Virus record (IMG/VR): IMGVR_UViG_2695420732_000030
Coordinates: 1 to 18,236 of that record
Strand: one strand, 5' to 3'
DNA from: a virus
Lineage: Duplodnaviria; Heunggongvirae; Uroviricota; Caudoviricetes
DNA length: 18,236 nt
Position numbers and translations under genes: made by a program. This document shows positions 2,795 to 14,909 of this stretch, piece by piece (position 1 is the stretch's first letter; each line of letters opens with the position of its first letter). The notes under the pieces are model-generated. The model searched no databases. It was not told the origin of the DNA and saw only the letters and a program-made list of their open reading frames with translations.

Positions 2795-5459
2795 TTGCAT
2801 ACTCCTTAGCCCAGCGGGGCAGTGATAACGTCTTAATAGCTGGCCATTCATCGGTATTTAGGCAGTCAGCCAGGGTCCGCAGATTGCGGTGATATTCCTG
2901 CTGGCCTGCCAGTTTTGCTTCTTCGCCCATCATGAAAATCTCAACCGGATAACGTCCGCATTCAACAGTTGTGCTGGCAACCAGAAAAACGAAAGTTGGC
3001 TGCACGCCAAACTGTGCTTCATAACCGTCACTGTAGAATGCATCCTGAACGTGATAGCGGTAGTCGTAATAAGCCGTTTTGAATCGTTGAATATCCGCTG
3101 TGGTTTTCACGTCCATGATCCAGTGAAATTCAGGAATAATTTTGTCCGGACGGCACCGACACAAAATTCCTGTTTCCGGATCTTCCCAGTAAATTGATGA
3201 TTCAGCGTGTCCGGCGCTTTCAACAAGCCATTGCCCCAGCGGCAAAGCCATAACGCTTTGATACATGAGTTCAATTTTCCGGCCTTCTTCCGCAGTGATA
3301 ACCGTTTTTCCTGTGCTTGCGCATTCCATCAGAAACGCTTTCTCTTCTTCTTTTCCGGCGGTTGTACGGCGGTTAAATTCAGGTGCTACGATAAAGCGGT
3401 TACTGAATTCTTCCGGTTCAAGTACCCGGCAGTGGAAAGCGGTTCCTAAATCGAGCGTTTTTGTCTTTGTAGTGTCCACGGGGGCATTTTTACGCCACAA
3501 ATACAGTGCCGGAGTATCAGCAATGTCATCGAGCTGAGACTTACTGACACCGGGACCCGCGTGGTAATTCTCATTCGAAATTCCGTAATAAATACCTGGC
3601 TCTATGTCTTCTACGATTACGGGATCTGCGACTTCGCCAGTTTCATCACTGCAATCGCGATGCGGATCGCTGCCAGCATTCTCATTGTGCGGATGTTCAG
3701 CGCCTTCCATTTCCTCCGGATCTTTTTCCTTAGCTTCAACCTGATTCTCTTCACCGAATGTTTCCTGGTATGTTGCGTCGCCCATCACCGCGCCACAATC
3801 AGGGCAGTTGCCGCCACCGCTCTGACCGCAGGCGGTGCAGACTTTTTCCGGTTCCTGTTGCGCTACTGGTTCGGATTGTTTCGTTTCTGGCTCGTTTTGT
3901 AACGCATTTGGGCTGTTTTGTTCCGCTTTTTGGTCGTTCCGTTCCGATTCATGCTGGTTCTGGTTCACAGAATCGCGAGTCTGGATCCCCTTGACCCATT
4001 TCGGATCATTAGGGTCGCTAATCCCCTCAACAAATTCACCACGCGATACAGCAAGTAACTTATCGGCGTCAGGCTGGCTGATATTGGCTGCCTGCATAAT
4101 TTTGTTTACTTCGTCAGCGGTGACTTTTACTTGGTTAGCGGAACTCACCTGCGACTGAGCATCCAGCGACTGCGCGTTCTGGCCATGTTCAGTTGTATCC
4201 GGTTCCATTGTTTCAGTTGTTGCCTGTTCACCTGCCATTGCGTCAGATGGTTGTGGTTTTTCTTCTTCTGTTTCACGCTCAGTAACCACCTCGCGGTTAA
4301 TTTCTTCCAGGATATCTTTTTCCGGTGTATGCCGGGCAGCTGTGAGAGTTTCCTTGCTGGGGTTCTCGTGATCAGTTTCCGTCAAATAGGCGTTGATATA
4401 CCCCTGAAGGCGTCCCGGGTAGTGATAAAATTCAGGGTGTGCGCTTCGGATAAGTGCAAAAATAGCGGCGCGGGAATAGTCCAGAATACCCGGGGTTGCA
4501 CGAAGTGCTGCGGACCATTCTTTGAACGGACTTTCTTTGTTCAGGACTACTTCTTTTGCGCGACGATAAACGCTGCCCGGAATTTCATAAATATTAAAAT
4601 CCATCGGAAGTGTGGCTGCTGCAATCTCCACATCCAGTGTGTCGAGGGTGTGTACTAAATTCGGATTGCGATCGGTTTTGTTCCCACCGCCAGCATTAGC
4701 ACCGGAAGCCGTGCGGGTGATGCGTGAAACACGATTTCCTTTCATCCACTCTTTTGTCAGCAGACCCCGATAAGTGTAGTCAGCGTCCAGGTATGCTTCG
4801 AAAAAAGCAGTTATTAGTCCCAGGTCTGAATTACCAGGATTAGGGAAAACTTTGTCAGTGTCACGAACCAGTTTGTGGAGGTCGCGAATCTCCAGCGAGT
4901 CGAGCAGACTGGTTTTATGCGAAATAGCCAGGGCAGTAACAGCCGGTAGTTCTTCAGCCCGTGCAATGTGTAATGCCTGGAGTTCGTCGCGTGAAACGTG
5001 CGTTACTGGTTTTTCGCTGCCGTGTTGAGCAAGCCAACGAATGGGCAGTTCCTGACCGGAGACAGGCAGAAGCATGCTCTCCTCAATCTCAGTCATGTCT
5101 TCGCCGTTGATGTTGGTATTGTCAGTGCTGGCTGGTTTATCCTGAACAGAGGGTGACGGGGCGATAAATACCATTGTGATGCCATCCTCCCCGCCTTTTT
5201 CGTATCGGTTGCAGAATTCCGTATCAAATACGCCTTCTGGTGGGAGGTCATCAACAACGGGCAAATTGACGCGAACAGGTTTTTTAAAGTCATCTTCATC
5301 GTAGCCAGCATCGTCAATCGCAACAGCACCACGGGAGATGGCAATGGATAATTTTTTCGCTTCAGCCCAGTAAAAACCGCCTTTAATACCGAGACGTTTT
5401 CTTACTTTGTCATTTTTGGCTTCGTAATACAGTGGGAAAACTTGTTTATCGGTGCTCAT
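2787..5459 (-). CDS. recE: Exodeoxyribonuclease VIII (RecE), 890 aa variant
   Basis: C-terminal ~280 aa ([24 protein letters not shown]...[12 protein letters not shown]...) resemble the RecE PD-(D/E)XK nuclease domain; N-terminal and central acidic linker as recalled for RecE but divergent and longer than the K-12 form (recalled as 866 aa); ATG at 5459. Confidence 0.9.
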
Positions 5460-6080: not shown

Positions 6081-6301
6081 TACCATGACTCCGCCTTTAC
6101 AGGTAAACCATCACGACCGAGGAAGACTCTAATCATGCAGTCAGAAATGCATGTTTTTGTAGTCAGGCTACGAATATAAAGTTTTCGCTTTTTAATATTG
6201 TTTGCCGAGGCGATATATGTCCGACCTTCATGAAGAACATAATCGCCAGGAGTCACACACTGACGTGGTATTTCATCAGTTCCGAAGTGATGAGCAATCA
6301 T
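6080..6301 (-). CDS. kilR: KilR, FtsZ-targeting cell-division inhibitor of Rac, 73 aa
   Basis: Translation [46 protein letters not shown]... matches KilR as recalled; ATG at 6301 has a GGAG SD 7 nt upstream; track ORF trimmed by 4 codons. Confidence 0.8.
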
Positions 6302-6691: not shown

Positions 6692-7042
6692 TTAATCTGA
6701 ATATCCCCCAACAGATGGAAGGATTTTTCTATGCTCGAAAATCAGACCTTGAAGGTTGCCTGCCCTGATTGCGGCAGTGAGATGCTCAAGCGGCCCGATG
6801 ATTTTGACTTTGACACTAATTTCGTTGGCGTTAGTTGTGCCGAATGTGGTCGAGAAATCACTAAGGACGATGTTATTAAGCAAGGAAAAAATGTAGTTCA
6901 GAAACAAGTCAATGACATGCTCCGGAACACCCTCAAAGGCAGCGGGTGGAAGTTTAAATAACCCATGTATCGCACTAAAGTGTTCCGTTACTTCTGTAGC
7001 GTCTATGGTAAGTTTGATAGGCGCTATTTTCACTCCCGTCAT
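6692..7042 (-). CDS. Hypothetical protein, 116 aa, at the position where K-12 Rac carries sieB; fully antisense-overlaps the plus ORF 6731..6961
   Basis: ATG at 7042 with GAGGTGA SD 5-6 nt upstream; near-consensus sigma70 promoter ~70 nt upstream on the same strand (7119-7147); candidate terminator downstream (6466-6512). No recognisable family. Confidence 0.42.
   Translation of the reverse strand: MTGVKIAPIKLTIDATEVTEHFSAIHGLFKLPPAAFEGVPEHVIDLFLNYIFSLLNNIVLSDFSTTFGTTNANEISVKVKIIGPLEHLTAAIRAGNLQGLIFEHRKILPSVGGYSD
6731..6961 (+). CDS. Hypothetical zinc-ribbon protein, 76 aa (CPDCG-x22-CAECG)
   Basis: ATG at 6731 with AAGGA SD; two CxxC pairs 22 residues apart; about 70% purine at codon position 1. 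Lies entirely inside the antisense ORF 6692..7042, so one of the two may be a shadow frame. Confidence 0.45.
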   Translation: MLENQTLKVACPDCGSEMLKRPDDFDFDTNFVGVSCAECGREITKDDVIKQGKNVVQKQVNDMLRNTLKGSGWKFK

Positions 7043-7118
7043 ACATCACCTCAAATCTTTTCCCTTAACGCCGGGTGGCGGAACTAAAACCTACAGCGCC
7101 GTGCTGTTCTCGATAGAA

Positions 7119-7147
7119 ATATTAGTGACACGTATATTTTAAGTCAA
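7119..7147 (-). promoter_or_regulatory. Near-consensus sigma70 promoter on the minus strand: -35 TTGACT, 17-bp spacer, -10 TAATAT (PL-like position)
   Basis: Reverse complement of 7119-7147 reads TTGACT-N17-TAATAT; sits between the repressor-gene terminator and the 116-aa minus ORF, pointing toward the kilR-recET-int operon. Confidence 0.5.
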
Positions 7148-7243
7148 CAGCAAGGCGTATTATATTTTTGATTTTGTAACTATGTAAATGTTTTTCAAGG
7201 GAAAAATATTAGTTATACAGCTGATTTGCAGAAGTTATGGCAC

Positions 7244-7277
7244 AAAAAAAACCGACTAAGACGTCGGTTTTTTTTTG
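7244..7277. terminator. Bidirectional intrinsic terminator (A8-CCGAC-loop-GTCGG-T9)
   Basis: AAAAAAAACCGACtaagacGTCGGTTTTTTTTT; 25 nt downstream of the repressor stop (7303) on the minus strand and downstream of the 6731..6961 plus ORF. Confidence 0.7.
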
Positions 7278-7302: not shown

Positions 7303-7764
7303 CTACTGGTTACGTTTCTTTAGTGCCAGCATGTTCTCGAAGGCTTCCTCGTAGAGCTTGTTTAGTCCACGTAGCTGGTTAAGGAGTTTGGCTTTTTCTG
7401 ACGCAGGTAGAATCTCGAAGAGGTTAAGTAACTCTGCCTGTTCTTCATTGACCAGCCTCCATCCTTTGCCTGAAAAGCTATCATCATAAGTATCTGATGA
7501 TCTTACATAATTCATTAAGTCTTTAAGGTCTTCTCGAATGTCCTCTGGTTTTACCTTTAACAGAGCCGCAAATTTTAGCGCAGCGTCGGTATTTACCGGT
7601 ATCTTGCCGTTCAGATACTGGCTAACGGTGCCTTGAGATTCGAATCCCAACAACTCAGCCGCCAACTCTTGAGTCAGCTTCAGCTCTTTTTTTCTTGCAT
7701 TCCATGCGGCTTTTAAATTCTTGCTCGCTTCTGGAGTTGCAATCACTTCGCGTGTTTTTTTCAT
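7303..7764 (-). CDS. Prophage repressor, HTH XRE/cI-type (RacR-like), 153 aa, no S24 peptidase domain
   Basis: HTH motif LTQELAAELLGFESQGTVSQYLNGK; divergently transcribed from a Cro-like gene; the acidic/helical C-terminal half lacks the Ser-Lys autocleavage module. Confidence 0.8.
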   Translation of the reverse strand: MKKTREVIATPEASKNLKAAWNARKKELKLTQELAAELLGFESQGTVSQYLNGKIPVNTDAALKFAALLKVKPEDIREDLKDLMNYVRSSDTYDDSFSGKGWRLVNEEQAELLNLFEILPASEKAKLLNQLRGLNKLYEEAFENMLALKKRNQ

Positions 7765-7800
7765 ACATAGAGTTTATTTGTTTTACCAATATTATCAAAG

Positions 7801-7841
7801 ATAGTCTGACTATTGATCTTTAAAATTAGTAGGGCTAATAT
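7801..7841 (+). promoter_or_regulatory. PR-like promoter (-35 TTGATC 7813-7818, 17-bp spacer, -10 TAATAT 7836-7841) overlapped by the perfect palindrome ATAGTCTGACTAT (7801-7813), a candidate operator
   Basis: Read directly from the sequence in the 107-bp divergent intergenic region between the repressor and Cro-like genes. Confidence 0.5.
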
Positions 7842-7871
7842 TTGCTCGAGGCATAACGTAGAAGGTTGGCT

Positions 7872-8147
7872 ATGAACTTAAGAGACTATTTAAAAGAGAA
7901 ACATATCACCCAGCTACAGTTTGGGAAGCTAACGGGTTTATCTCAGGTGCATGTAAGTCGAGTGCTGGGGGGCTATGAAAGATTCAGCCCTGAAAAAGCA
8001 TTACGTGTTGCTGAAGTAACGAATTTCGAGGTTACACCTCATGAACTCCGGCCTGATATCTACCCGAATCCAACCGACGGTTTACCTGTTGGATGTAAGG
8101 CTAACACACAAAATACACAGGAGTTGATTCATGAAAATCAGGCATGA
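7872..8147 (+). CDS. Cro/YdaS-like HTH DNA-binding protein, 91 aa
   Basis: HTH ITQLQFGKLTGLSQVHVSRVLGG; ATG at 7872 with AAGG SD (track start 7866 is a TTG); first gene rightward of the repressor; its stop overlaps the next gene's start (ATGA). Confidence 0.7.
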   Translation: MNLRDYLKEKHITQLQFGKLTGLSQVHVSRVLGGYERFSPEKALRVAEVTNFEVTPHELRPDIYPNPTDGLPVGCKANTQNTQELIHENQA

Positions 8148-8553
8148 GCACATCGAATCGGTGCTGTTAGCCCTGGCAGCTGAAAAAGGGCAGGCATGGG
8201 TAGCCAGTGCAATTACTGAAGAATATCTGCGCCAGGGAGGCGGCGAATTGCCCCTGGTACCAGGCAAGGACTGGAATAATCAGCAGAACATCTATCACCG
8301 TTGGTTAAAAGGTGAAACGAAAGCGCAAAGGGAAAAAATTCAGAAACTGATCCCTGCGGTTCTGGCAATTCTTCCGCGCGAGCTGCGTCACCGACTCTGC
8401 ATCTTCGATACCCTGGAACGCCGTGCATTACTGGCGGCGCAGGAAGCGTTGAGTACGGCAATTGATGCGCATGATGATGCAGTCCAGGCCGTTTACCGGA
8501 AAGCACATTTCAGCGGTGGTGGGTCGCCCGGCGATTCTGTCGTAGTGCATTGA
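8131..8553 (+). CDS. ydaT: YdaT-like protein (toxic when derepressed in Rac), 140 aa
   Basis: 140 aa starting MKIRHEHIESVLLALAAEKGQ..., same length and position as Rac YdaT as recalled; AGGAG SD at 7-nt spacing. Confidence 0.65.
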   Translation: MKIRHEHIESVLLALAAEKGQAWVASAITEEYLRQGGGELPLVPGKDWNNQQNIYHRWLKGETKAQREKIQKLIPAVLAILPRELRHRLCIFDTLERRALLAAQEALSTAIDAHDDAVQAVYRKAHFSGGGSPGDSVVVH

Positions 8554-8597: not shown

Positions 8598-8618
8598 TGT
8601 AACGCTGCGAGCGTTACA
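8598..8618. repeat. Palindrome TGTAACGCT-GCG-AGCGTTACA, copy 1 of 3, 13 nt upstream of the O-like gene start
   Basis: Perfect inverted repeat read directly; the same half-site TGTAACGC/GCGTTACA recurs at 8790-8810 and 8998-9016. Confidence 0.6.
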
Positions 8619-8630
8619 AGGTGAAAACAA

Positions 8631-9425
8631 ATGGCTTCAAACTGGATAAAGCTCGAGGTTATTACGCCGGATAAGCCGGAAATATTCAGGCTTGCTGAGA
8701 TTCTGAATATTGATCCAGATGCCGCATTAGGGAAGGTTATTCGCTTCTGGGCATGGGCGGATCAACAAATGATAGACGGTAATGCAGATTGTAACGCTCG
8801 CGGCGTTACAAAAAGTGCAATAGATCGCATCACTTTTATGGCTGGTTTTGCTGATGCGTTAATTCAGGTTGGATGGCTGGTCGAAAATGACGGTGGGCTT
8901 TCTCTACCTAACTTTGAACGTCATAACGGGAAAAGCTCTAAAAAACGGGCGGTTACAAACGAGCGAGTTACAAAAATACGCGAACTGAAACGAAAAGGTA
9001 ACGCTGGCAGCGTTACACAAACGGATCAAAAAGCGTTACCAGAGGAAGAGGAAGAGGAAGAGGAAGATATAAATACTGATCTCCCCCTAAATCCCCCTCG
9101 CCAAAAACGAGCGTCTAAAAAATTCGAGCCGGAGGCTATCGAGCTACCTGACTGGTTGCCGGAAACACTCTGGCATGAGTGGGTTCAGTTCAGGCAGGCA
9201 TTGCGAAAACCGATTCGAACGGAGCAGGGCGCTAACGGGGCGATACGGGAACTGGAAAAATTCCGTCAGCAGGGTTTTACACCTGAGCAGGTGATTCGAC
9301 ACAGCATCGCCAATGAATACCAGGGCTTGTTCGTACCGAAAGGTGTTCGGCATGAGACGTTGCTCCGACAGGTTAACACCGTCTCGTTGCCGGACAGTGC
9401 GATCCCGCCAGGCTTCAGGGGGTAA
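8631..9425 (+). CDS. ydaU: Replication initiation O-like / YdaU-like protein (DUF1376-like), 264 aa, with internal poly-Glu
   Basis: Position immediately upstream of the DnaC-like gene; AAGGTGA SD; palindromic repeats embedded in the coding sequence, as for ori within lambda O; the (GAGGAA)4 tract at 9042-9065 encodes the poly-Glu run. Confidence 0.7.
   Translation: MASNWIKLEVITPDKPEIFRLAEILNIDPDAALGKVIRFWAWADQQMIDGNADCNARGVTKSAIDRITFMAGFADALIQVGWLVENDGGLSLPNFERHNGKSSKKRAVTNERVTKIRELKRKGNAGSVTQTDQKALPEEEEEEEEDINTDLPLNPPRQKRASKKFEPEAIELPDWLPETLWHEWVQFRQALRKPIRTEQGANGAIRELEKFRQQGFTPEQVIRHSIANEYQGLFVPKGVRHETLLRQVNTVSLPDSAIPPGFRG
8790..8810. repeat. Palindrome TGTAACGC-TCGCG-GCGTTACA, copy 2, inside the O-like CDS
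   Basis: Perfect 8-bp arms with a 5-bp spacer; direct GTTACAAA repeats follow at 8952-8959 and 8967-8974. Confidence 0.6.
8998..9016. repeat. Palindrome GTAACGC-TGGCA-GCGTTAC, copy 3, inside the O-like CDS; extra half-site GCGTTAC at 9033-9039
   Basis: Read directly; same half-site as copies 1 and 2, at ~200-bp spacing. Confidence 0.55.
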
Positions 9426-14610: not shown

Positions 14611-14735
14611 ATTTTCAATACGTTTGAAGTTATGGACGATGCCGGAATAGAATCAAAAATACTTAAGTAGCGCGCAGGGAGAAGAGGGATGGACCCCGAA
14701 CAGGGGGGTGCTATTTATCTGGAAGGATTCTGTTG

Positions 14736-14909
14736 ATGAAAATTGAAGAATTACGTGAAATTTTTAGTGAAAATGGCCTCTTTGCTGTGCGCGTTGAGAA
14801 TGGGGAAGTTATCTACGCAACGTTAATCCCTGATAATCATGTAATTTTATCTATCGAGGCATTCATTGAATATCTTGAAAGGCTCGGTTTCAAGGTGATT
14901 CGGGAATGA
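14736..14909 (+). CDS. Hypothetical small protein, 57 aa (MKIEELREIFSENGLFAVRVENGEVIYATLIPDNHVILSIEAFIEYLERLGFKVIRE); not in ORF track
   Basis: GGAAGGA SD 8 nt upstream of ATG 14736; hand-translated. Confidence 0.4.
   Translation: MKIEELREIFSENGLFAVRVENGEVIYATLIPDNHVILSIEAFIEYLERLGFKVIRE

Follow-up and report, generated by a model that had tools for sequence, protein, structure and literature searches.

A probable prophage immunity switch on the lambda plan with a DicA-type repressor, a distant YdaS relative and YdaT in a Rac-like Escherichia coli prophage

Which kind of control is exerted by a short helix-turn-helix (HTH) repressor that is encoded divergently from a Cro-like gene and ydaT: that of a toxin-repressor module of the RacR/YdaS/YdaT type, as a first-pass annotation of this DNA had proposed, or that of a phage immunity circuit? 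We analysed the locus within the whole of an 18,236-nucleotide stretch of a tailed-phage record (IMGVR_UViG_2695420732_000030), called the window here. All three genes, in the arrangement described, and the palindrome were found at the positions given in that annotation, and its description of the region as a prophage immunity switch was upheld.

7303-7764, minus strand: immunity repressor, an open reading frame (ORF) of 153 aa with a lambda-CI-like N-terminal HTH domain at about residues 12-80 and a DicA-like helical tail at about residues 103-152.
7872-8147, plus strand: Cro analog of 91 aa, divergent from the repressor, a marginal YdaS-family HTH protein.
8131-8553, plus strand: YdaT of 140 aa, CII analog, a tetrameric HTH activator.

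Across the window, the gene order was intR, xisR, recET, kilR, the switch and replication genes, and the window matched Rac-site prophages adjoining ttcA. We consider it highly probable that a Rac-like lambdoid prophage of E. coli, integrated at the Rac attachment site next to ttcA, has its immunity (lysis-lysogeny) switch in this region. It is just as probable that this switch follows the lambda plan with non-lambda parts, namely a DicA-type repressor in place of RacR, a Cro-like protein and the CII-like YdaT. Such a region is a matter of ordinary lysis-lysogeny control, and the switch is of a known kind. The identities of the genes and their domain make-up, established by sequence and homology, are set out below.

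Pfam matches of the repressor were confined to HTH_3 and HTH_31. An S24 peptidase domain was absent at E<=0.01 (PF00717), and neither an Ala-Gly nor a Cys-Gly dipeptide occurred in the 153 residues. Since the repressor has no S24 domain, RecA-stimulated self-cleavage is excluded. These results bear out the earlier description of a 153-aa HTH repressor lacking a LexA/S24-like autocleavage domain; a cleavable C-terminal domain, which would have contradicted it, was absent from the Pfam matches. Relatives bearing PF00717 aligned with the repressor only over residues ~16-90, and its N-terminal domain was 53-55% identical to the N-terminal domains of S24-carrying repressors. The best PDB sequence match was the lambda CI N-terminal domain (phmmer, E 2.6e-4), and the AlphaFold2 model (pLDDT 73), in which the C-terminal part was predicted as two helices, matched 1lmb with a TMt of 0.78 in Foldseek, the range for lambda-CI-type matches being 0.76-0.83. 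The model matched solved structures in Foldseek only via the N-terminal domain; structure matches such as Stl and EspR were ignored because their rmsd was above 13 Å. In hhalign, the repressor family aligned with DicA over residues 24-153 versus 15-133 (probability 94.9%, E 4.6e-8). The tail shared 38% identity with DicA residues 91-132 (BLASTP, E 8e-6) and was matched by PHROG 5736, and it contained an LLxLFxxLPxSE motif, as in DicA, which was common to a second Rac-site repressor. The NCBIfam DicA model NF007257 gave the repressor 35.1 bits, far below its cut-off of 101, so the protein is to be regarded as a distant DicA relative and not as a DicA ortholog. A tail-only search of 1.8 billion representative proteins returned four matches, all of them close relatives or fragments and none of them DicA, and thus does not inform on the wider distribution of the tail. 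The alignments indicate that the repressor is a DicA-family member with a lambda-CI-like N-terminal domain and that its resemblance to DicA is distant; the DicA-type tail probably mediates oligomerisation. The protein was 100% identical to one annotated as dicA in phage Rac-SA53 (GenBank KU052037).

The Cro-like protein matched Pfam YdaS_toxin (PF15943) marginally, with 30.9 bits against a cut-off of 30, as well as HTH_3, and it shared 32% identity with K-12 YdaS over 50 aa (E 4e-7). It fell into PHROG 35, and RefSeq names the gene 'YdaS family'. Judged by these matches, it is a distant YdaS relative only. Homology to DicC was also considered and rejected, as no similarity was found. Compared with the 'dicC' product of Rac-SA53, the protein was 99% identical over 82 aa and carried another 9-aa tail. 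The cro-like ORF and ydaT overlap by 17 nt, in agreement with the translational coupling proposed earlier. However, a gap of 9-10 nt separates the two genes in Rac-SA53 and four related loci. By this comparison the overlap is peculiar to this mosaic variant, with the qualification that an Enterobacter locus overlaps too.

The 107-nt intergenic region between the repressor and the cro-like gene contained two promoter-like elements and three candidate operators.

7771-7798, minus strand: PRM-like promoter, with -35 TTGATA (7798-7793) and -10 TAAACT (7776-7771).
7813-7841, plus strand: PR-like promoter of the cro-like/ydaT operon, TTGATC (7813-7818), a 17-nt spacer and TAATAT (7836-7841).
7775-7791, no strand: candidate operator O3, TATTTGTTTTACCAATA, with core TTGTtttACCA, between the PRM-like -10 and -35.
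7801-7813, no strand: candidate operator O2, a perfect palindrome, ATAGTCTGACTAT, between the two divergent -35 hexamers.
7825-7839, no strand: candidate operator O1, ATTAGTAGGGCTAAT; it overlaps the PR -10 and forms a 5-5-5 palindrome whose core is TAGTaggGCTA.

The PRM-like promoter agreed with the consensus at 9 of 12 positions in the promoter scan. Its -10 ends only 7 nt ahead of the first base of the start codon (the A of ATG, at 7764), so a repressor transcript without a leader is predicted; the leaderless cI and paaR2 mRNAs are experimental precedents (PMC8630535). T1, A2 and T6 of this -10, together with its distance to the start codon, were invariant across eight diverged intergenic regions. 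The PR-like promoter matched the consensus at 8 of 12 positions, which is under the threshold of the consensus scan and explains why it was unlisted there. TTGATC and TAATAT each kept their position in most of the eight aligned related regions, and the -10 of K-12 PydaST is also TAATAT (PMC11879457). Its earlier description as near-consensus was therefore overstated, conserved as the hexamer positions mostly are, and so was the overlap of its -35 with the palindrome, the two having a single base in common.

Relative to the predicted starts of PRM and PR, the latter near 7848, the centre of O2 (7807) is at about -43 and about -41, respectively, and relatives showed one substitution in it (ACTA to GCTA in E. 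albertii; in the inner arm or spacer in Enterobacter). When the intergenic region was shuffled, a perfect 6+6 palindrome arose in 19% of shuffles with a spacer of 0-5 and in 4% with a spacer of exactly 1, so that the O2 palindrome by itself is within chance and not statistically unusual. On the other hand, related sites are present 24 and 25 bp either side of O2, and sites on both sides at 22-27 bp occurred in 0.3% of shuffles, in a test that was, like the operator consensus, partly post hoc. O3, 24 bp away, has two mismatches to the O2 palindrome core, and the core of O1 was largely retained in Rac-SA53 and Enterobacter with a variable spacer. Heteroimmune relatives showed dyad symmetry at the O3 offset from the repressor ATG (~21 nt), and dyads recurred at matching offsets in them. 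An operator role, which had been proposed for the palindrome, is thus supported by the two related sites flanking it and not by the palindrome alone, and we infer that O1-O3 are operators of the repressor. The repressor would bind these three related dyads, 24-25 bp apart, and occupation of O1 and O2 would occlude PR; the promoter of the repressor gene itself contains O3 and has O2 ~43 bp upstream. In such an arrangement the repressor would keep the prophage silent, and loss of repression would allow PR to transcribe the Cro analog and YdaT.

On the far side of the repressor gene, a putative terminator is followed by leftward promoter-like sites.

7244-7276, no strand: bidirectional intrinsic-terminator-like hairpin, CCGAC/GTCGG between an A-run and a T-run, located just past the end of the repressor gene.
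7119-7147, minus strand: candidate PL, TTGACT-17-TAATAT, leftward beyond the terminator.

The hairpin, unlisted by a consensus terminator scan, was read from the sequence and confirmed by RNA folding (dG -17.3 kcal/mol, z = -5.8; none of 200 shuffles folded as well), and it was kept in the E. albertii and Enterobacter loci. The candidate PL was kept in E. coli, E. albertii and Enterobacter, where it reads TTGACA-17-TAATAT. A second, stronger-looking leftward promoter, TTTACA-18-TATAAT (7188-7159), was not conserved in Enterobacter. With a matrix derived from the OR sites O1-O3, no clear OL operators were picked out near the leftward promoters. An exact match to the operator core at 6160-6170, inside kilR, was set aside as probably due to chance.

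YdaT was 94% identical to K-12 YdaT, an identity by which ydaT is a true ortholog of the K-12 gene. It matched Pfam YdaT_toxin (PF06254; E 5e-11) and PHROG 163, 'CII-like transcriptional activator', and its PDB relatives were 3c4r and 8bt1. As a tetrameric activator, YdaT recognises a defined box in a sequence-specific manner (PMC11879457), and H56, R57 and W58 are retained here, the first two being DNA-binding residues of YdaT (PMC11879457). Such a box, and a promoter-like element beside it, were found at the start of ydaT.

8124-8141, no strand: YdaT-box, TTGATTcatgaaAATCAg, straddling the ydaT start codon.
8098-8106, minus strand: extended -10 of a PRE-like leftward promoter, TGT-TAGCCT.

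The YdaT-box has one mismatch to TTGATT-N6-AATCAA and was kept in most related loci; the K-12 box, ATGATTCATGAAAATCAA, has been footprinted and is required for YdaT-dependent activation of leftward transcription (PMC11879457). The start of the PRE-like promoter is predicted near 8091, which places the centre of the box at about -41.5. In a box-anchored ungapped alignment of K-12, Rac-SA53, a heteroimmune E. coli prophage, Hafnia, Serratia and Enterobacter, a TAnnnT hexamer was present 20-21 nt left of the box in every locus shown, mostly after TGn or Gn. In CP-933P, the PRE promoter sits between ydaS and ydaT (PMC8630535). In K-12 the YdaT-dependent promoter PracR4 has been placed 190 bp from the box, not adjoining it (PMC11879457). 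YdaT binds the inverted repeat that spans its start codon, and we infer that it turns on the leftward PRE-like promoter 20 nt away; the resulting transcript would cross cro and enter the repressor gene in antisense orientation.

The Pfam names YdaS_toxin and YdaT_toxin also invite another interpretation, in which the locus is an atypical toxin-antitoxin, or toxin-repressor, module whose rightward genes are toxins silenced by the repressor for host benefit or addiction. In K-12, silencing of racR is lethal through ydaS and ydaT (PMC5700373, PMC5700377), and expression of K-12 YdaT, to which YdaT here is so closely related, leads to filamentation and death (PMC11879457). However, this toxicity works via misregulated host rcsA (PMC11879457), the YdaT of CP-933P is non-toxic and both YdaS and YdaT were shown to be regulators there (PMC8630535), and lambda CII is also toxic when overexpressed, yet it is not deemed a toxin (PMC5917428). 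In addition, the three genes occupy the exact positions of cI, cro and cII between recombination and replication genes, YdaT is a sequence-specific tetrameric activator whose box is conserved here, and, the historical Pfam names aside, toxin folds or families were absent from the cassette. Published work speaks against membership of the type II toxin-antitoxin systems and regards YdaS as a Cro analog and YdaT as a CII analog, both harmful when overexpressed (PMC5917428, PMC8630535, PMC11879457). We consider a toxin-repressor module improbable. The value of the present analysis is mostly that of a correction, because naming a cassette without RacR a 'RacR/YdaS/YdaT toxin module' would extend a disputed annotation to it.

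If the locus is an immunity switch, is it a working one? The trio, with an intergenic region of 106-107 nt, was also found in E. albertii, Enterobacter, Hafnia, Serratia and Salmonella (three of the related loci came from a scan of genome contigs and the remainder from exact-protein look-ups). Of 5426 complete E. coli genomes, 180 (~3%) carried the cassette, among them Shiga-toxin-producing and enterotoxigenic strains. Any single record of the E. coli collection covered at most 78% of the window, which implies heavy mosaicism. This mosaicism, the cryptic nature of many Rac-site prophages and a view confined to 18 kb, too short for the late genes to be judged, would fit a decayed remnant, in which the ORFs of a defective prophage are intact and the switch no longer works. 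Such decay is nevertheless very unlikely, since all three ORFs are intact, the cassette is 98-100% identical in the best E. coli genomes listed, family-invariant residues are spread over both repressor domains, and both the YdaT-box and the promoter hexamers are retained in different genera; moreover, the switches of the cryptic K-12 Rac and CP-933P prophages are still functional (PMC8630535, PMC11879457).

A sister prophage with the same backbone carried a third, different repressor/cro pair adjoining the same ydaT, from which it follows that the repressor/cro cassette is exchanged as a unit. Rac-site prophages swap repressor/cro cassettes in this way and retain ydaT and the YdaT-box, with the recombination junction exactly at the cro end. 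That the locus might be the K-12 RacR-YdaS-YdaT switch in an orthologous but sequence-diverged form, repressor family and operators being shared, is suggested by the shared chromosomal site and backbone, the nearly identical ydaT and the RefSeq name of the cro-like gene, but on sequence grounds this is already refuted and next to impossible: the repressor has no detectable similarity to RacR (BLASTP E=26; hhalign probability 1%), RacR operators are absent, the resemblance of the Cro-like protein to YdaS is limited to 32% over 50 aa, and the cassette is swapped as a unit in the sister prophage. RacR operators (WTAGGC-n3-GCCTAW) were sought at up to three mismatches in 7740-7900 and at up to two across the window, and the same scan recovered the known sites in K-12. 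The earlier assignment to the RacR/YdaS/YdaT type and the alignment to the K-12 proteins proposed with it therefore held for YdaT, were marginal for the distantly YdaS-like protein and failed for the repressor.

The immunity switch proposed here resembles several characterised systems in part. With K-12 Rac it shares the integration site and prophage backbone, a near-identical YdaT and YdaT-box, the PR -10 TAATAT, and a divergent operon layout with three inverted repeats ~25 bp apart, as described for RacR (PMC9638921). In contrast to K-12 Rac, the repressor is unrelated to RacR, which has been described as having two HTH domains, the operator sequences differ, and the cro-like gene overlaps ydaT by 17 nt, these genes being 22 nt apart in K-12. 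The CP-933P PaaR2/YdaS/YdaT locus of O157:H7, as described, likewise has a non-cleavable HTH repressor, several dyads in an intergenic region of ~100 bp and a Cro-like YdaS, and its repressor mRNA is leaderless, a property that is predicted only in the present case. There, YdaT activates PRE and the switch is bistable (PMC8630535); its YdaT is ~30% identical to Rac-type YdaT (PMC11879457). Unlike in CP-933P, the repressor gene here is followed not by paaA2-parE2 toxin-antitoxin genes but by a terminator. Phages carrying CP-933P-type YdaT were also found by tblastn. The fold of the repressor N-terminal domain is common to lambda (Foldseek, 1lmb), whereas the repressor here is without an S24 C-terminal domain and so without RecA-mediated cleavage. 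Lambda has the tripartite operator spacing of OR1-3; its repressor mRNA lacks a leader, one operator is situated ~42-43 bp ahead of the promoter that transcribes the repressor gene, and a leftward promoter that depends on an activator is found where cII begins. These features are paralleled here by the three dyads and the predicted leaderless start, by O2 and by the PRE-like promoter at ydaT. YdaT is not a CII homologue at the family level, and the repeat that it binds is inverted, not direct (PMC9986795). In Rac-SA53, the immunity genes are annotated dicA, dicC and ydaT, and rem adjoins hok; the replication genes differ from those of the window, and cro and ydaT are separated there by a gap in place of the 17-nt overlap and the different 9-aa Cro tail seen here.

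Similarity to the Qin DicA/DicC/Rem system of K-12 bears on how the switch might be turned off. Both systems have a short non-self-cleaving repressor composed of an HTH domain, a linker and a C-terminal helical tail, a divergent cro-type gene, and a hok-rem pair right of the immunity region. They differ in that ydaT is absent from Qin, DicC is no relative of the Cro-like protein, and the N-terminal domain of the repressor here resembles that of lambda CI more than that of DicA. A scan of the whole window revealed no LexA boxes beyond chance.

14736-14909, plus strand: Rem-like ORF of 57 aa, candidate antirepressor, ~7 kb downstream, with its own promoter-like site at 14624-14653.

This ORF is shorter than Qin Rem (83 aa) and alike at the N-terminus only, with 65% identity over 26 aa (E 9e-11) restricted to the first 26 residues, and it was 70% identical to the 'rem' product of Rac-SA53. 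Of the 60 best E. coli matches, at least 19 had it at a distance of 6-9 kb from the cassette, a co-occurrence that could reflect shared prophage ancestry rather than function. In Qin, Rem relieves repression by DicA (PMC10448788). By analogy, an antirepressor of the Gifsy/Qin type would most likely be the induction route, for which the Rem-like ORF is the candidate.

Taken jointly, the observations raise a tentative possibility, to which we give the lesser chance, that a CI-DicA chimeric repressor is switched off by a Rem-like protein and not by RecA, and that YdaT controls a small CII-like regulon via class-II-positioned boxes in Rac-type prophages. The same tentative reading would make the extended -10 adjoining the cro/ydaT box the true PRE, in K-12 included.

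A candidate second, unreported YdaT-box was also seen between xisR and the RalA antitoxin sRNA, around 1490-1535, with the same geometry on both sides and an identical sequence in K-12. If these secondary observations hold, Rem-type antirepressors would govern a second family of non-cleavable repressors, and K-12 Rac would be predicted to have a PRE next to its YdaT-box as well as a YdaT-box upstream of ralA/xisR.

Computational follow-up of the switch locus found all three ORFs where the first-pass annotation had put them, and its observation proved real, if partly overstated.

7303-7764, minus strand: repressor ORF, 153 aa, with Pfam matches
7872-8147, plus strand, divergent from the repressor: Cro-like ORF, 91 aa, with Pfam matches
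8131-8553, plus strand: ydaT ORF, 140 aa, overlapping the Cro-like ORF by 17 nt

The Cro-like ORF matched Pfam YdaS_toxin at 30.9 bits (cut-off 30) as well as HTH_3, and the 140-aa ORF matched YdaT_toxin. The left part of the window carries intR, xisR, ralR/RalA, recT, recE, ydaE, and kilR, and to the right of the switch genes lie a replication initiator, a DnaC-like loader, nin-type genes, hok/sok, tRNAs, and prophage sRNAs. The nearest matches are Rac-site prophages next to ttcA in Shiga-toxin-producing E. coli, O157:H7 among them. From this gene context and these matches, we conclude that the locus is the immunity region of a Rac-like lambdoid prophage. Since the best coverage of the window by any single record is at most 78%, the element is a mosaic.

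The reading of the locus as a switch with a non-cleavable repressor was correct: the only Pfam matches of the repressor were HTH_3 and HTH_31, and an S24 domain is absent. The label "RacR type", on the other hand, fails for its name-giving part, because the repressor is unlike RacR and RacR operators are missing. The repressor showed no similarity to K-12 RacR (E=26), its family profile gave RacR a probability of 1%, and a scan for the published operator WTAGGC-n3-GCCTAW (PMC9638921) found none in the window while recovering the K-12 sites; RacR is thus ruled out as its family. YdaT is 94% identical to K-12 YdaT, whereas the Cro-like protein shares just 32% identity over 50 residues with K-12 YdaS. 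Residues 12-78 of the repressor match the lambda CI N-terminal domain by sequence (E 2.6e-4), and its AlphaFold2 model (pLDDT 73) fits the lambda CI N-terminal fold (Foldseek 1lmb, TMt 0.78). The N-terminal segment is 53-55% identical to N-terminal domains of S24-peptidase-carrying repressors, a similarity that ends at about residue 90. Over the last 42 residues, identity to the end of K-12 DicA is 38%. A full-length alignment of the family profile with DicA reached a probability of 94.9% in hhalign (E 4.6e-8), a PHROG of ~133-aa regulators matched the tail, and the NCBIfam DicA model matched weakly, at 35 bits (cut-off 101). Neither an Ala-Gly nor a Cys-Gly dipeptide occurs in the sequence. 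The CI-like N-terminus, the DicA-like tail and profile, and the lack of both dipeptides make this a DicA-family, non-self-cleaving repressor with a CI-like DNA-binding domain. One deposited phage genome already has annotations for the components of the switch: in GenBank, Escherichia phage Rac-SA53 (KU052037) has an identical repressor protein annotated dicA and a Cro-like gene (99% identical) named dicC, followed by ydaT.

The toxin-repressor behaviour attributed to the locus is a dated framing, based on 2017 K-12 papers. Later papers make YdaS and YdaT analogs of Cro and CII that are harmful when ectopically expressed (PMC5917428; PMC8630535; PMC11879457), as lambda CII likewise is (PMC5917428). 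The conserved regulatory sites in the window fit this Cro/CII-analog view, and the system is an uncharacterised immunity region of lambdoid type, in which the repressor is DicA-type and YdaT is the CII analog.

The candidate promoters and operator, named after their lambda counterparts, and a terminator are as follows.

7813-7818 and 7836-7841, plus strand: PR-like promoter, TTGATC-17-TAATAT, consensus match 8/12
7801-7813: palindrome ATAGTCTGACTAT, candidate operator
Minus strand, ending 7 nt before the repressor ATG: PRM-like promoter, TTGATA-16-TAAACT, scan score 9/12
7244-7276: strong hairpin terminator
7147-7119, minus strand: candidate PL, TTGACT-17-TAATAT, conserved, beyond the terminator hairpin

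The PR-like promoter, described earlier as near-consensus, has its hexamers, but its match lies below the threshold of the consensus promoter scan, which did not report it. The hexamer positions are kept across eight aligned intergenic regions, most of which retain TTGATC and all except one TAATAT. T1, A2, and T6 of the PRM-like -10 are invariant in this alignment; together with the short distance to the ATG, this predicts a leaderless repressor mRNA, a feature that experiments have established for lambda cI and PaaR2 of prophage CP-933P (PMC8630535). The palindrome said to overlap the -35 is present, but shares only one base with that hexamer. Perfect 6+6 palindromes occurred in 19% of shuffled intergenic regions, so that ATAGTCTGACTAT alone is not significant, but its core TAGT-N3-ACTA recurs twice nearby, at 7827-7837 (one mismatch, overlapping the PR -10, 25 bp from the palindrome) and at 7778-7788 (two mismatches, inside the repressor promoter, 24 bp from it). 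Flanking sites on both sides at 22-27 bp, a distance range picked with lambda in mind, were seen in 0.3% of shuffles, and K-12 RacR operators are likewise ~25 bp apart. Near relatives largely keep the dyad cores and vary in the spacers; heteroimmune relatives have different dyads at the same offsets. The central site lies ~43 bp upstream of the predicted repressor start, and lambda CI at OR2 activates PRM from the equivalent position.

On the leftward side, a promoter TTTACA-18-TATAAT (7159-7188, 11/12) precedes the PL candidate, which is the more widely conserved of the two: E. coli and E. albertii keep the upstream promoter, whereas Enterobacter does not. A position matrix made from the three dyads revealed no clear OL operator beside the leftward promoters. 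Downstream of candidate PL, the GC-rich segment GGCGCTGTAGGTTTTAGTTCCGCCACCCGGCG (7070-7100, minus strand) is kept even in the Enterobacter locus despite diverged flanks, and could be an RNA element, nut-like or of another kind.

K-12 YdaT, a tetrameric HTH activator, footprints ATGATTCATGAAAATCAA at the start codon of its own gene and turns on leftward transcription into racR (PMC11879457). In CP-933P, YdaT recognises TTGATT-N6-AATCAA and activates PRE between ydaS and ydaT (PMC9986795; PMC8630535).

8124-8141: YdaT-box TTGATTCATGAAAATCAG, candidate YdaT site
8106-8098, leftward: PRE-like hexamer, TGT-TAGCCT

Two YdaT-boxes with at most one mismatch occur in the window, against 0.11 expected. 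When loci were aligned ungapped on the box, a TAnnnT hexamer lay 20-21 nt to its left in every locus shown, preceded in most by TGn or Gn; the counterparts of the hexamer here are TATGAT in K-12 Rac, TATGCT in a heteroimmune E. coli prophage, TATTCT in Hafnia, and TACCAT in Serratia. With this spacing, the box is centred at about -41.5 relative to a leftward promoter, a class II arrangement, and the box-adjacent promoter is predicted to be the PRE analog.

In K-12 Rac (3650-3695), a good -10, TATGAT, lies 20 nt leftward of the footprinted YdaT-box, with the geometry of the related loci. PracR4, the promoter reported to depend on YdaT, was instead assigned a position ~190 bp from the box (PMC11879457). 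The box-adjacent promoter may be the real PRE, which is a reinterpretation rather than a contradiction, since the published constructs would contain both candidates. A second YdaT-box-like inverted repeat, TTGATTattaatAATCAg (1504-1521), identical in K-12 Rac, sits in the region separating xisR from the RalA antitoxin sRNA (Rfam RF02694, 225 bits, 1557-1735). It is flanked 20-21 nt on either side, the spacing of the PRE-like promoter, by -10-like hexamers (1477-1482 and 1542-1547), TAACAT on the xisR side and TACAAT on the ralA side, each pointing toward its gene. For the Rac locus, the 2025 YdaT paper describes no YdaT sites other than the intergenic region and the box at the ydaT start, and xisR goes unmentioned in it.

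A sister prophage with the same backbone has another DicA-like repressor/cro pair beside the same ydaT, indicating that repressor and cro move as a cassette. Comparison with Rac-SA53 placed a recombination junction at 8118-8147, where the cro-like gene ends, which explains the alternative tail and 17-nt overlap of this variant: the two Cro-like proteins are identical to residue 81 and then differ in a 9-aa tail, coded by the ydaT Shine-Dalgarno and YdaT-box segment common to heteroimmune prophages. Repressor homologs (57-92% identity) were found in Enterobacter, Hafnia, Serratia, Salmonella, and E. albertii, and in every homologous locus the intergenic region measures 106-107 nt and is accompanied by a Cro-like gene of 82-88 aa and a YdaT gene. 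Of 5426 complete E. coli genomes, 180 carry the E. coli cassette (7303-8120).

RecA-stimulated cleavage of the repressor is excluded because it has no S24 domain, and no LexA box was found in the window. DicA and Gifsy repressors are inactivated by small antirepressors, Rem being that of the K-12 cryptic prophage Qin (PMC10448788).

14736-14909: Rem-like ORF, 57 aa, directly after hok/sok, as in Qin
14624-14653: promoter-like site of the Rem-like ORF

The ORF shares 65% identity with Rem across 26 residues and 70% with the gene annotated rem in Rac-SA53. Among its best 60 E. coli matches, at least 19 have the cassette 6-9 kb away on the same strand, where ~2 of 60 would be expected under independence, shared prophage ancestry being the obvious confounder. 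We hypothesise that the Rem-like protein could induce the prophage as antirepressor of the 153-aa repressor. This link, the box-adjacent PRE, and the second YdaT-box at ralA/xisR are more interesting than the switch itself. In one O157:H7 genome, RefSeq labels the counterpart of the Rem-like ORF merely a truncated pseudogene.

Elsewhere in the window, a 17-bp palindrome, TAACGCT-N3-AGCGTTA, occurs three times (8600-8616, 8792-8808, and 8999-9015; two copies exact, one with a single mismatch) within the replication-initiator gene (8631-9425, PHROG 2509) and shortly before it; the initiator probably binds these repeats, or they are repeats of the origin. Two fully overlapping ORFs occupy opposite strands of 6692-7042: a minus-strand ORF of 116 aa with a good Shine-Dalgarno (phrog_29546) and a plus-strand ORF for a 76-aa zinc-ribbon protein with CxxC pairs (phrog_4852). 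A tRNA cluster (Met/Ile-type CAT, Arg TCG, and Arg TCT) within 16549-17178 is followed by the prophage sRNAs STnc100 (16910-17118) and AgvB (17119-17178, minus strand, scoring just at the gathering threshold), a combination typical for prophages of enterohaemorrhagic E. coli.
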